Shown: positions 5,680 to 33,139 of the stretch, in pieces
Layout of the letters: every line of letters begins with the position of its first letter
How positions within the stretch are numbered: the first letter of the stretch is position 1
From: a bacterium
GTDB taxonomy: Bacteria > Fidelibacterota > Fidelibacteria > Fidelibacterales > Fidelibacteraceae
NCBI GenBank assembly: GCA_963676395.1
Contig: OY781066.1
Location: forward strand, 320,001 to 384,000
Length of the DNA: 64,000 nucleotides
Reading direction: 5' to 3'
Translations under genes and position numbers: made by a program
Notes under the pieces: model-generated
Database searches by the model: none
Seen by the model: only the letters and a program-made list of their open reading frames with translations
Told to the model about the DNA's origin: nothing

Positions 5680-6936
5680 ATGAAAGATCTTTTTCTTCAC
5701 CTTCAACATCTGCCGGAACTGCTGGTTGTGGGAGCGATCATTATTGCTGCATTCTATTTGGGACGAACCGTTAAATTGATCAAACTCCCCTCTTTAGTTG
5801 GTTTTATGCTTCTTGGCGTTTTATTGGGTCCGTCTCTTTTCAATATTTTGGGGGAAACTCAACAACAACATCTTGCATTTATTACCGAGATCGCTTTAGG
5901 GTTTGTTGCGCTTAGTATTGGACTTGAACTGAAATTCTCATCTTTAAAAAAACTTGGCAATGGAATAGTTGGTGTTATTTTTGCCGAATCTTTGGGTGCA
6001 TTTATTTTAGTTGCAGGACTTATTTACCTTATAACAAAAAATCTCCCACTGGCTTTAATTTTTGGTGGCATCGCACCTGCTTCTGCTCCAGCCGGGACGG
6101 TTGCTGTTATCCAGGAATACAAAGCAAAGGGACCACTTACAAAAGCACTCTATGCTGTTGTAGGTTTCGACGATGGCTTGGGTATTATCATTTTTGGCTT
6201 TGCTGCAGCCATTGCAAAAAATATTTTAATAACCGAATCCGGTATGACCGAAAGCAATTTCTGGTTCACAATGTGGGTTCCACTAAAAGAAGTCTTCTTA
6301 TCAATAGCGAGCGGTGCCATTTTAGCTATACTATTTTCATTGTTGGCTAAGAAACTTAAAAATTCAGGAGATGTTTCAATCCTCTTGATAGGCTTTGTCC
6401 TTCTGGGAATAGGTTTAAGCTCACTTCTTCACCTTTCGCTGATCCTGACCAATATGATCATCGGGATGGTCGTAGTTAACACCCAATCTTATGATCTTCT
6501 ACAACGTATTCACGATCGTCTTCCCTCATTCATGCCCTTACTTTTTATCCTATTCTTTACATTAGCCGGTGCTAACCTACATATTAATGCCCTCCCTTCT
6601 TTGGGATTAATAGGCCTTATATATATTTTTGCCCGCTCCAGTGGACTTATTTTCGGTTCCCGAATTGGTGCGCTCTTTGGACATGTAGATCCTAAAATTA
6701 AAAATTGGATCGGACTAGGTATCCTATCTCAAGCCGGTGTAGCCATTGGTTTATCACTTATTGTCAAACAAGAATTTGCCGGCCTCGGGAGAATGCTTGA
6801 TATCGGTATCACAACCGGTGATTTTATTGGAAATACCGTTATAACCACCGTCACTGCAACCTGTTTATTTTTTGAGATCATTGGACCTATCCTTACCCGG
6901 ATCGCTTTAAAAAAGGCCGGAGAAATAGAAACCTGA
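5680..6936 (+). CDS. Cation:proton antiporter (CPA superfamily), paralog 2
   Basis: Colinear with 3353..4633; APASAPAGT, GFDDGLG and SQAGVAIGL motifs. Confidence 0.9.
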   Translation: MKDLFLHLQHLPELLVVGAIIIAAFYLGRTVKLIKLPSLVGFMLLGVLLGPSLFNILGETQQQHLAFITEIALGFVALSIGLELKFSSLKKLGNGIVGVIFAESLGAFILVAGLIYLITKNLPLALIFGGIAPASAPAGTVAVIQEYKAKGPLTKALYAVVGFDDGLGIIIFGFAAAIAKNILITESGMTESNFWFTMWVPLKEVFLSIASGAILAILFSLLAKKLKNSGDVSILLIGFVLLGIGLSSLLHLSLILTNMIIGMVVVNTQSYDLLQRIHDRLPSFMPLLFILFFTLAGANLHINALPSLGLIGLIYIFARSSGLIFGSRIGALFGHVDPKIKNWIGLGILSQAGVAIGLSLIVKQEFAGLGRMLDIGITTGDFIGNTVITTVTATCLFFEIIGPILTRIALKKAGEIET

Positions 6937-7120
6937 CGAATTACAAATATTAAATATTCATTACTGATTTAGAATGCGAATTTAGAATTGTAAATACTAA
7001 TTTATTGACGATTTGTAATTCGCATTCTTGCTTCCAATTCAATAACATACCATCATTCTACTTCATACTTAAAATCATTATTCATCATTGTTAATATTTT
7101 AATCTTTTTACCTACAAAAT

Positions 7121-7147
7121 ACACAAAAGCCCATCGGGCGATGGACT
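7121..7147 (-). terminator. Intrinsic terminator on the minus strand with no credible upstream CDS
   Basis: Minus strand reads AGTCCATC-GCCC-GATGGGCT then TTTGTGT. The U-G pair forms only in this orientation. Confidence 0.7.
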
Positions 7148-7729
7148 AATGTGATGAGAGAGAGAGATTTTATTATAATGAATCTTTACAATTCATTGTG
7201 TTCTAAGTTGTTTTCAAATCACTAATTGGCACTATTCCAATTAAGTTCGGTTAATTATAAAGCAAATTTTTCTTAAAGACAAGAAAATAATTCTTTGTTG
7301 TGTTTTATAAAAAATACATGCCAATTTGGAGCTGAAATTAAAGTATTTAAGTGCCTCATTAATAAGTAACATAACATTCACATGTATGTGTCTTTTTATT
7401 AAGATCATAAGCATTGTTTATATAATATCTTTTTCGGTCAAAGCATAATGAATTCAATTAAGCGATCTAATCGTCAGGCTCGATTATAATACAGATTTCC
7501 ATTCTTACCTTAGCTCCCGATAAATTTTATTTTACCGCATCATCTTTAGACGAATTTAATACAAAACTGAATTGTATAAATTTAATATCTCTAATCAAAT
7601 CATGCGATTCGTCAATAATAAATGCGCCACCTAACTTCGGTGAATAATCTCACCAAAAAAACAAAATCCGATTTTGCACCGGATCTTACACTTATACCGC
7701 AACCATAATTCGTACTTATATTTTTGATA

Positions 7730-8040
7730 CATCTACAACTTTGTATAAGGGGCGGGGTTGTACAATTACAAAATAAGCCTCCGCCCCATCTACCATCTCT
7801 TGTGTTACCATATCGAATGGCAATACCACCGATAACAGTTCTCTCTCTCGTCAAGTCTGATGTCTCTCTACTTCCACCGGACCTCTCTCATCTCCTCTTG
7901 ATGGCTCTCTCTTTCCATCAAGGCTCTCTCTCTTTCCATCAAGGCTCTCTCTCTTTCACCAATAGGGGTCTCTCTCTCCCAGTTTGGCAACACAAAATTA
8001 CATGTAAGCTGTTCTTTTCTCTCTTTTAATCACCTATCTC
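7730..8040 (+). ncRNA. Candidate structured ncRNA with repeated CUCUCU tracts (boundaries approximate)
   Basis: GC-rich hairpin at 7749-7787, hairpin at 7802-7826, about 8 CT-dinucleotide tracts at 7841-8024, and a CTTGATGG/CCATCAAG stem with a CU loop. No credible ORF. Confidence 0.4.
7903..7957 (+). repeat. Tandem repeat GG(CT)4-5TTCCATCAA, about 2.7 copies
   Basis: Units at 7903-7921 (19 nt), 7922-7942 (21 nt) and 7943-7957 (partial). Confidence 0.9.
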
Positions 8041-8548
8041 AGCGCTAAGGATCTAAGATTGGCATTTAACTCTCTATTACTAAGTTTTATTCTGTCCCCA
8101 TAAAACCACCATAGAATTTCACACCCGACTAAATTACAAAACTGTGTTCCGCATATGAATTCGCCCAAAAACTACCGTTTAGATACTTATCCACATTCAG
8201 TGTCTTTGCACTCAGAATCGTGCTAATCATGCACAGTATCGTAGCGATGTTTAAGGTTCTTGTCTTCATATCATCCTCACATAACTGCCTGAAAATATGT
8301 AGATAATTACTAGGCTACAAGCTTTTTACGGAACTTGAATGTTAATTGAGAGAATGTTTACCATTCCTTAATTATCTTGATTAATTCTTTATCAATTTAT
8401 TCACGTTCCGAGATATTTTTATATGATCTTTCTCTTAGACGAAAAATAAATCTCTTATAAAAATCAAGAATAAGCTCGAATGTCTATGCTGCTCTATTGT
8501 AAAACATTCAATATTCATTTATATTCAATCTTATTGAAAGGCGGCATA

Positions 8549-9559
8549 ATGAAAAAATATCTAATACTATTTCTCACATTCATCTCAATGATAAATGCTA
8601 CTGAATTAAGCTTGGGTTTCAGTGGAAACAACAGAGGTGCAATGATGCCCTGCGATTGCACTATTCCTGCAGGAGGCTTAGCAAGAATATCTACAGTTGT
8701 CAACAATATTAAAAATGATCATATCCAAGTAGGTGCAGGGAATCATTTTTTTCATCATACGCCAATGAAGTACGACAATCAGATACACGAGCAAAAAAAA
8801 GCCTTTTTACAAGCTCAGTTGATGAGTGAGATGAACTATTCAGTCGTTAACGTCGGACAGTTTGATCTGTGTTACGGTTTAAAACCCCTCTACCAGATCC
8901 AGGATAATTTCGGTCTGGATCTCATATCGGCAAATATCGTAGATCTTAATGATTCTCACCCCTTCCCGGCTTTTAAAATAATTGAATACAATGATCTTAA
9001 AATTATGTTTATTGGAATATGCCAGTACACAAACGAAATGAACTTCAAGATCTTAGACCCATTAAAAACACTTATAGAACTGAGTAATGAAGGCGTATTC
9101 GATGAGGCTGATCTGGTTATTCTGCTTGCAGATGCAACAAGCAAAGTTATTTTGGATTTCATCACATATTATAAGGGAGTGGATATTGTTATTGCATCAA
9201 AAGAACATCGAAATACAATGTTGCCAATGAGATTCAAAAATACGGATTTGATACAACTGGGTTCTCAAGGTAAGTATTTTGCCAAATTGGATTTACGTTT
9301 TGAAAACTCTGATCATTCTTGGACAGACCTAAGCCAAGAACACGCACACATCTCCGAAATTCATCAAGAGCTTTCATTGTCAAATGAAAATCAAAAAACT
9401 CTTAGAAACAAAATGAAGAACCTTAAGAAAAAACTTCGAAGACAGATTAAACAACATCCCAATAATTACTATAATAACATGATTTTCCTTGATGACGGTA
9501 TAAATGATGATATTGCAATAAAAGATCGCATAGAAAGCCTAACAGAAGGGAAAAAATAG
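8549..9559 (+). CDS. Secreted UshA/5'-nucleotidase-like metallophosphoesterase-fold protein with a PCxC motif; metal motifs degenerate
   Basis: Signal peptide MKKYLILF (start 8549 after AAAGG preferred to 8480); G.MMPCDC...GGLAR; GAGN in place of DAGD; GSQGKY. Confidence 0.7.
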   Translation: MKKYLILFLTFISMINATELSLGFSGNNRGAMMPCDCTIPAGGLARISTVVNNIKNDHIQVGAGNHFFHHTPMKYDNQIHEQKKAFLQAQLMSEMNYSVVNVGQFDLCYGLKPLYQIQDNFGLDLISANIVDLNDSHPFPAFKIIEYNDLKIMFIGICQYTNEMNFKILDPLKTLIELSNEGVFDEADLVILLADATSKVILDFITYYKGVDIVIASKEHRNTMLPMRFKNTDLIQLGSQGKYFAKLDLRFENSDHSWTDLSQEHAHISEIHQELSLSNENQKTLRNKMKNLKKKLRRQIKQHPNNYYNNMIFLDDGINDDIAIKDRIESLTEGKK

Positions 9560-33011: not shown

Positions 33012-33080
33012 GGTCTAAAATAGGTTAAAATCATAAAAATGCCAAAATCAATCTAACCGATAATCAATGATCATTTTTAC

Positions 33081-33139
33081 CTACTTCCTACCACTCACCA
33101 CTCACTACTTACTACTTACTACTCACTACTCACTTCTCC
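33081..33139. repeat. 7-bp tandem repeat CYACTYA, about 8 units
   Basis: CCACTCA CCACTCA CTACTTA CTACTTA CTACTCA CTACTCA plus degenerate flanks. Confidence 0.85.

Follow-up and report, generated by a model that had tools for sequence, protein, structure and literature searches.

The dense cluster of CT tracts in the window (the whole stretch of 64,000 nucleotides analysed here) is best read as the antisense image of a neutral (GA)n minisatellite that grew inside a dead gene, an interpretation to which we assign a probability of about one half. The minus strand from 8269 to 7178 is a dead copy of a gene coding for a secreted right-handed beta-helix protein of ~341 aa, and the CT tracts are therefore (GA)n on the sense strand of that gene. 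The unit of the minisatellite is a GA run with its spacer, and old, diverged units stand in the array alongside very young ones. The conserved RNA element of the same gap, to judge from covariance and distribution, is the (UC)6-terminator tail at 7177..7114 (minus strand), which is probably functional. The original prediction, which had placed a candidate multi-seed ncRNA at 7730..8080, is as a whole partly supported and largely replaced.

The CT-tract cluster and its repeat architecture

The gap between 6937 and 8479, 1.5 kb long and poor in ORFs, is flanked by a Na+/H+ exchanger gene (5680-6936, plus strand) and by a 359-aa ORF with no Pfam match (8480-9559, plus strand); a GH20 hexosaminidase is also found among the flanking genes. 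Within the gap, CTCTCT starts at 7841, 7843, 7864, 7883, 7905, 7907, 7924, 7926, 7928, 7945, 7947, 7949, 7970, 7972, 8019, and 8070, so that 16 of the 19 CTCTCT starts of the 64-kb window fall in 7841-8070; the tract at 7891 reads TCTCCTCT, pure alternation being absent there. The whole genome, a single contig of 2,335,625 bp (~2.34 Mb), contains 272 CTCTCT on this strand, and its densest 400-nt window is this very cluster, with 16 of them versus 4 in the runner-up, which bears out the claim that such a density of tracts does not recur in the window. Not one 400-nt window of the genome holds at least four AGAGAG.

The single public run containing the stretch 6937-8479 (X1) is not recorded as RNA. 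Its Logan contigs carry 0 other letters when compared with the window and are interrupted solely within the 21-nt repeat, where the word depth is 21.5-43 versus 12.5-15.1 in the flanks, as expected for ~3 copies. Since the contigs match letter for letter, the cluster is not an assembly artefact, a risk that had been raised from the outset, with the reservation that X1 is possibly the source of the assembly itself and hence not independent DNA. By blastn, the segment 7700-8110 has 0 matches in 40 relatives and none elsewhere in the genome. Neither relatives anchored on the 359-aa neighbouring protein nor the exact 20-nt repeat-unit pattern were found in metagenome contigs, a collection that may omit records near this genome.

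Seven (GA)3-5 tracts, each followed by a spacer of 12-15 nt, form the array at 7841..7977, which is assigned to the minus strand according to the sense of the dead gene; from 7841 to 7969 the interval between tract starts is 19-24 nt. TRF reported a period of 21 at 7905-7957, with 2.5 copies, 100% matches, and a score of 106, and the same repeat, when extended to 7977, comprises 3.4 copies at 88%. This segment (7905..7977, no strand assigned) is the youngest part of the array, as indicated by TRF together with the ~3-fold word depth in X1. The copies at 7841, 7864, 7905, 7926, and 7949 belong to one repeat family with identities of 66-100%, those beyond the identical units showing 66-76% with the run included. 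The tandem amplification of the unit that had been proposed is confirmed by the period of 21, and the head-to-tail copies with a constant period make the array a tandem repeat, i.e., a minisatellite. A perfect alternating run of 7-11 bases is kept in all seven units, and among the older units the spacers bear next to no resemblance to each other. Two outlying tracts lie at 8018..8075 (minus strand), the first being an 87% copy of the unit core (8018-8032) and the second being embedded in gene-homologous sequence (8070-8075).

The hairpins described originally do exist. The inverted repeat CTTGATGG/CCATCAAG (7897..7943, no strand assigned), recovered both by repeat search and in the folds, holds one tract in a 10-nt loop closed by an exact 8-bp stem, in which 7897-7904 has two possible 3' partners, 7915-7922 and 7936-7943; it originates from one inverted spacer copy adjoining direct copies. 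The tract said to lie within GGG...CCC is real as well, being placed between GGGG and CCC. As for the GC-rich hairpin (7743..7793, no strand assigned), its arms at 7743-7755 and 7781-7793 are 85% complementary, but the plus-strand preference attributed to it did not hold, both strands folding it; the arms align with the Gly-Gly-Gly-Gly and Pro-Pro codons of the dead gene, of which they are relics. When the segment 7735-8085 is folded, the minus strand is better than shuffles (z -2.66, 1 of 100), whereas the plus strand is not (z -1.58, 9 of 100).

Other strand-asymmetric intergenic minisatellites with a period of 14, 21, or 28 occur in this genome, for example at genome positions 180990, 227814, 353078, 2115649, and 2219835. 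One of these lies inside the window (33078-33134). The recurrence every ~21 nt of the tracts in the array, together with the identity of the last 2.5 units, points to repeated slippage or unequal exchange. According to this scheme, a 21-nt unit with one GA run would have been multiplied in a gene that was already inactive or that was inactivated by the insertion; the dinucleotide runs would persist and re-expand by slippage and the spacers would drift, the hairpins might represent by-products of one inverted and several direct spacer copies, and the array would have no function of its own.

The dead beta-helix gene and its conserved tail

The assignment of 7178..8269 (minus strand) draws on synteny, tblastn, and the Pfam domains of the orthologs. 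In 10 of the 11 loci of relatives with an ortholog of 8480-9559, a divergently oriented ORF of the beta-helix family lies upstream of that ortholog; the eleventh locus has just 159 nt of flank. The beta-helix orthologs contain Beta_helix (PF13229) and DUF1565. Six orthologs (five plus one from the genome G008) matched the minus strand by tblastn in colinear pieces, with E values ranging from 1e-8 to 2.7e-11 (1.2e-8 for G011, 2.7e-11 for G008). Residues 1-88 of the ortholog correspond to 8269-8090, with a 28-aa deletion and an in-frame stop that ends a 46-codon ORF; residues 69-104 to 8150-8043, in another frame; residues 102-192 to 8052-7654, with a 43-residue insertion at ~7867-7995; and residues 212-248, through a weaker match, to 7643-7533. 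The 46-codon ORF (8129..8269, minus strand), visible both in the tblastn alignment and in the ORF list, is what is left of the gene's signal-peptide end. The insertion of ~43 codons relative to the intact orthologs (7867..7995, minus strand; ~130 nt), recognizable as a query gap of 43 residues, carries in-frame stops and contains 6 of the 10 tracts, the remaining ones being in gene-homologous sequence. A terminator-like hairpin followed by a T-run was also detected by the terminator scan inside the dead gene (7661..7689, minus strand). Colinear similarity, a conserved neighbourhood, and a frame disrupted by stops, frame changes, deletion, and insertion together identify the gene as a pseudogene, and the rest of the genome yielded no intact copy of the beta-helix gene. 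On the sense strand, GAGAG starts 19 times in the 1092 nt of the pseudogene versus 0-4 times in the six intact ortholog regions (~1.0-1.1 kb), where it is mostly found before the start codon. The motif ATAATTAAGGAA, located upstream of the dead gene, was considered as a shared promoter and discarded, few of its 18 genome copies preceding genes.

The conserved 3' module, as delimited by the covariance model R1 and the terminator scan, spans 64 nt (7114..7177, minus strand) and comprises an A-rich stretch, (UC)6 at 7167..7156, a hairpin at 7147..7128, and a U-run. The same arrangement recurs across many species of the genus, in the order stop codon, 10-35 A-rich bases, (TC)5-8, ATTGCAGGAGCCCG, loop, and CGGGCTTTTGT. 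The model R1 was obtained from the alignment of ten module copies found via a (TC)6 search in the genus, and compensatory changes are observed in 5 of the 14 stem pairs of these ten copies. Its score on 7177..7114 (71.9 bits, E 3e-13) is within the range of the others and represents the sole match in this genome. At E<=0.01, R1 recognizes 18 of the 22 genomes of the genus; at E<=1e-4, it recognizes 16 of these 22, 0 of 11 genomes from other genera of the family, and yields 2 weak matches in 118 other genomes of the phylum. Of the 30 matches examined, 22 follow, at a distance of 0-35 nt, an ORF whose last residues resemble LN(I/V)K(V/I)FLEG(A/G)(L/F) (hereafter LNxKxFLEG), three are at contig ends, and five are in other contexts. 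The carrier proteins possess different N-terminal domains (beta-helix, CBM64), and in G008 the beta-helix ortholog itself is followed by the module; therefore, the whole of 8269..7114 is one dead unit, made up of the gene and its tail. The module of this genome is orphaned from its gene: no ORF with an LNxKxFLEG-like C-terminus was found upstream of it, the nearest ORF being 434 nt away, or anywhere in the genome.

The consensus scan revealed a promoter-like site (TTGTCT-17-TATAAT, 10 of 12) at 7254..7282 on the minus strand, which could start an RNA of ~130 nt ending at the module and which is to be taken as weak evidence, the scan being overall no richer than shuffles (9 sites versus 8.6). 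In the predicted fold of 7248..7114, UAAAAUCUCUCUCUCUCAUCAC and (UC)6 remain unpaired alongside three small hairpins and the terminator (z -3.28, 0 of 200 shuffles); the 5' part of this segment alone has a z of -2.73.

GA arrays in the genus and the alternative readings

The pattern CTCTCT-N6-36-CTCTCT-N6-36-CTCTCT is present in 15 of 21 relatives of the genus. Part of the matches are plain 14-nt tandem repeats, and the rest occur in two contexts, in both of which GA is on the sense strand. One of them (type A; G006, G009, G013, G014, G015, and G018) is the 5' leader of a protein of ~410-450 aa with a T9SS sorting tail (Por_Secre_tail), located downstream of a tryptophanase-like gene; the other (type B; G004, G007, G010, and G017) is the spacer between perR and the peroxiredoxin gene (prx). 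The exact 13-mer TCTCTCTCATTGC has 31 copies in 15 of 21 relatives, versus 0 in 22 genomes for the reversed control. Eighteen of the 31 copies are modules; among 12 others that were examined, six (at five loci) are oriented antisense to type-A genes and precede the starts of these by 16-52 nt, two are in type-B spacers, one is at a contig end, and three are in other contexts. Because the 13-mer lies antisense in the leaders, these are complementary to the module over 13-20 nt, that is, beyond the dinucleotide run; in G004 the match between array and module is ~19 nt. It is possible that such complementarity reflects selection for pairing, and it could equally derive from partial inverted copies of one element.

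In this genome the exact 13-mer is absent, perR and prx are ~28 nt apart, and nothing matches the N-terminal portion of the type-A protein. The tryptophanase-like (tnaA-like) gene is followed by a stub consisting of TGGTATAAT, (GA)5, and a terminator (genome position 1924964); a deletion between flanking GA runs could explain it, which weakens the value of UC/GA stubs as a sign of selection. Since the two gene families tied to UC and GA in the relatives are both gone here, the local system looks decaying. Among 28 intergenic (GA)>=4 tracts in this genome, nine precede a signal-peptide or lipoprotein gene at a distance of 0-2 nt from its ATG, and six fall in the gap studied, namely five array tracts and the complement of (UC)6. 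We also looked for co-variation between array and module, which share, beyond the run, the sole 6-mer TCCATC; this was estimated to be within chance and is not counted as evidence. Duplexes between array and (UC)6 are predicted at nine sites with -15 kcal/mol or better, as follows from composition.

The arguments for a neutral relic, which leave us evenly balanced about it, are the confinement of the array to one genome, its young copies, its location in dead DNA, the similar arrays elsewhere in the genome, the lack of a predicted promoter (the consensus scan lists no sigma-70-like promoter to drive the array on either strand), and the loss of the partner families. Against it we count the fact that the runs outlast the spacers, though neutral decay should erode both, as well as the very regular phasing of ~21 nt, the position of GA on the sense strand as in the T9SS-tail leaders and the perR-prx spacers, the occurrence, ~700 nt further downstream and on the same strand, of a (UC)6 with perfect complementarity and an intact terminator, and the better fold of the minus strand. 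Preservation of the runs, strict phasing, and an orientation shared with the other GA arrays would fit a different and more tentative reading, the main rival, to which we would give clearly less than even odds, in which the minus-strand RNA of the dead gene pairs through its ~nine (GA)n sites with the (UC)6 of the module RNA (7177..7114), acting as a target or decoy. The module RNA would either derive from this transcript or start at the promoter-like site at 7282..7254, and the array would titrate the UC RNA or come under its control. If free, the UC RNA might otherwise pair with the GGAGAGAGA-AUG RBSs of lipoprotein and secreted-protein mRNAs. The conservation of the module within the genus (16 of 22 genomes at E<=1e-4), its position behind LNxKxFLEG-like ORFs in 22 of 30 cases, the compensatory changes in its stem, and the abundance of the 13-mer relative to its reversed control argue for such pairing. 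The same holds for the complementarity of T9SS-tail leaders and perR-prx spacers to the module over 13-20 nt, for the GA tracts found just before the ATG of envelope-type genes here (9 of 28), and for the unpaired state of (UC)6 in the predicted fold. However, no minus-strand promoter is predicted upstream of 8269, the array is limited to this genome among those searched, the exact 13-mer is missing from it, and the complementarity of GA and UC follows from composition alone, the extra match being just the 6-mer mentioned above; moreover, the complementary copies are equally explicable as partial inverted duplications of one DNA element. One might go further and imagine a genus-restricted RNA-RNA regulation, in which the (UC)n tails of secreted-protein mRNAs would pair with the (GA)n arrays and with the GGAGAGAGA-AUG starts of envelope-protein and peroxiredoxin mRNAs; both coding partners having been lost here, an orphan UC RNA (7248..7114, minus strand) and a nine-site GA array ~700 nt upstream would be left as an sRNA and a sponge made from pseudogene DNA. 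We consider this model, in its entirety, unlikely. The lineage setting of the proposal is a genome in which neither Hfq nor CsrA was found.

Much less probable, in our opinion, is what the original prediction had put forward, i.e., a plus-strand RNA of ~350 nt whose up to nine CUCUCU seeds, some of them displayed in hairpin loops, would repress mRNAs with a GAGAG RBS. The tract in the 10-nt loop of the exact 8-bp stem and the one between GGGG and CCC speak for it, but just two of the ~ten tracts lie in loops, and the plus strand folds no better than shuffles. The leader arrays of relatives do bear module-like units on their CT strand, with (TC)n followed by ATTGCAGG; here, though, the CT strand is antisense to the decayed gene, the tracts are unconserved, being absent from the intact orthologs and, by blastn, from the 40 relatives, and the covariance model of the UC module has no match on the plus-strand tracts, its single match in the genome being on the minus strand. 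On the plus strand, the consensus scan detected neither a promoter between 7426 and 8346 nor a terminator beyond the tracts. Rfam gave 0 matches at E<=10 in 7730-8080, nothing above gathering scores over 6800-8600, and tmRNA alone on eight relatives' array loci. Its best match, BsrC on 7101-7186 (minus strand), overlaps the terminator module and reaches 27 bits versus a gathering score of 38, so membership was not accepted. As regards the supposed targets, a gene class with GGAGAGAGA-ATG start regions exists in the genome, but of 1343 start regions 39 contain GAGAG and 212 contain AGGAG, and CUCUCU is mismatched to the usual Shine-Dalgarno sequence, AAGGAG. A CUCUCU-type anti-SD at the 3' end of 16S rRNA is ruled out, the end being the usual GATCACCTCCTTTCT; since AAGGAG is dominant and the 16S 3' end is standard, the case for a general anti-RBS role of CUCUCU is weak. 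A role at the DNA level, in which seven CT/GA boxes spaced by two helical turns would constitute an iteron- or centromere-like protein binding site or an H-DNA-prone recombination hot spot, appears very unlikely. The regular phasing of ~21 bp would suit it, and (TC)n-ATTGC occurs in relatives in both orientations, as expected of a DNA site; nevertheless, no replication, partition, or regulator gene adjoins the array, the flanks being the Na+/H+ exchanger, the ORF with no Pfam match, and the GH20 hexosaminidase, the locus is single in the genome, and an action as RNA is suggested by the conserved module, which has the form of a standard intrinsic terminator containing G-U pairs.

Significance and comparison with known systems

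The neutral minisatellite represents a cautionary case, in which the most conspicuous low-complexity cluster of a genome, complete with hairpins, would be explained by gene decay and repeat expansion, and in which the strand that seemed meaningful (CT) is the antisense one. Taken alone, the cluster is nothing unusual, being a repeat expansion in a pseudogene. The complementarity between the UC module and the GA arrays is a modestly interesting and testable lead, the tail being tied to one secreted-protein family and the leaders of relatives being exactly complementary to it. If these RNAs pair, they would give this uncultured lineage its first candidate for regulation by base pairing, as far as can be judged from a narrow search of the open-access literature that found no paper describing such UC/GA elements in the lineage; they would also provide an example of a regulator and a decoy made from dead genes.

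Among known systems, the array resembles the expansion of VNTRs and minisatellites in its 21-nt head-to-tail units, in the coexistence of young identical and old diverged copies, in its location in a gene remnant, in being genome-specific, and in the occurrence of similar arrays in the same genome. It differs from them in that its dinucleotide core is better kept than the spacer and is complementary to a nearby conserved RNA tail. The cuckoo RNAs of alphaproteobacteria (RSs0680/ar14 family), as described in PMC4615179, are known transcripts that consist of 2-4 adjacent hairpins, each with CCUCCUCCC in its loop, and RSs0680a binds Hfq. As in these RNAs, the array has a pyrimidine-rich repeated motif that could pair with a purine-rich RBS, and one or two tracts lie in loops; unlike in them, the motif is CUCUCU, most tracts are outside loops, no hfq was detected in the genome, and the pseudogene has its sense on the opposite strand. 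Having no CCTCCTCCC, one TCTCCTCT at 7891, loops with the 7905 tract and weakly with the 7969 tract, and no Rfam match, the array was not assigned to this family. The same applies to Hfq-dependent sRNAs in general, since no hfq came up above the Pfam cut-off in the genome: the strongest PF17209 match reaches 14.2 bits (E 0.078) against a cut-off of 27 and contains an internal TGA.

The minus strand of the array shares with the CsrB/RsmZ sponges the presence of many repeated purine-rich motifs on one RNA, but the defining GGA-in-loop motifs are not its repeated element. The idea that minus-strand GAGAG would be complementary to 7156-7167 and CsrB-like has accordingly survived in its first half, a conserved (UC)6 module being located there and the GA arrays of relatives being complementary to it, while the second half was abandoned, and with it the assignment to such sponges, as csrA was not found in a six-frame search of the single-contig genome (PF02599, best 11.5 bits, E 0.77, cut-off 27).

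By analogy, the module appears most like the anti-SD motif of the icaR 3'-UTR or a 3'-UTR-derived sRNA, and the array most like an sRNA sponge. In the icaR mRNA of Staphylococcus aureus, the Shine-Dalgarno region of the 5'-UTR reportedly base-pairs with a UCCCC motif in the 3'-UTR of the same molecule. With this mRNA (PMC3868564), which we took as the comparison system for the neighbouring (UC)6 module, the module would share a pyrimidine motif at the mRNA 3' end complementary to the GA-rich starts of its own gene family, GAGAGAGG being found before the orthologs and GA-rich stretches before family genes. It departs from icaR in that its repeat, a dinucleotide run immediately preceding the terminator, is common to a paralogous family and is orphaned here, and in that the pairing is predicted. 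Known sponges usually have one or a few sites, which are experimentally defined. The array, by comparison, has ~nine predicted sites and lies in a pseudogene; yet, like the sponge of Vibrio cholerae (PMC9732341) and the cis-encoded antagonist (PMC8687705), it might provide an RNA with sites complementary to the seed of a regulator and encoded adjacent to that regulator.

An orphan (UC)6 module and the opposite strand

On the minus strand of the window, positions 7114-7260 hold an orphan (UC)6-terminator module (7177..7114: an A-rich stretch, (UC)6, a terminator hairpin and a U-run). The stretch also has a promoter-like site, and its predicted fold shows three small hairpins and a CU run that stays unpaired. 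A search with a covariance model built from copies in the genus revealed that the module is kept in 16 of the 22 genus genomes, and the same search returned no match in the other genera of the family. The region is a candidate for a stand-alone sRNA that would stem from the 3' end of a gene now lost, the decayed secreted beta-helix gene at 8269..7178 on the same strand. On the plus strand, reading of the sequence at 7156-7225 shows GAGAGAGAGAGA followed, after a gap of 10 nt, by an ATG at 7178 opening a 15-codon ORF that ends at 7225. This arrangement may be due to chance, since the GA run and the (UC)6 of the module are the two strands of one tract.

Heptamer-based tandem arrays

Between two minus-strand genes, at 33078-33134 of the window (genome 353078-353134), lies a tandem repeat that lacks G, has a period of 28 and is based on heptamers (TACCTAC/CACTCAC-like). 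Arrays similar to it, likewise strand-asymmetric and with periods of 14, 21 or 28, were observed at genome positions 180990, 227814, 2115649 and 2219835; the intergenic DNA of relatives also contains related heptamer arrays.

GA runs elsewhere in the genome

Outside the window, in the same genome, GGAGAGAGA immediately abuts ATGAAR at the starts of a gene family encoding lipoproteins and signal-peptide proteins (1365567-1365647; starts at 232816, 234913, 1363467, 656419 and 660245). The leader of one of these genes, whose product has 627 aa, contains five GA tracts and is preceded by a TTGCAA-17-TAATAT promoter-like site. Also outside the window, at 1924930-1925010, the 3' side of a tryptophanase-like gene carries the extended -10-like TGGTATAAT, to which (GA)5 and a terminator hairpin are appended. 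The same position in relatives is occupied by a multi-tract (GA)n leader, the gene for a T9SS-tail protein and a (GA)n-terminator; the segment looks like either a stub that remained after a deletion between GA runs, or a very small GA RNA.

3' modules in relatives

Contigs of relatives show a (UC)n module every 3-4 kb, each placed behind one of a tandem series of paralogous genes (G015:C21; G021:C1:1500156-1508316; G005:C1:296120-303177; G020:C11). The only part that these genes have in common is the C-terminal LNxKxFLEG tail, which may be a signal, so far unrecognised, for sorting or anchoring the members of a secreted-protein family. T9SS-tail protein genes of relatives (loci L062, L055, L065 and L072; genomes G002, G003, G006 and G007) end in ...KMLLVK*, followed by CCCCTGT, (AG)6-9 and a terminator hairpin. 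With its GA run, such a 3' module mirrors the (UC)n one.
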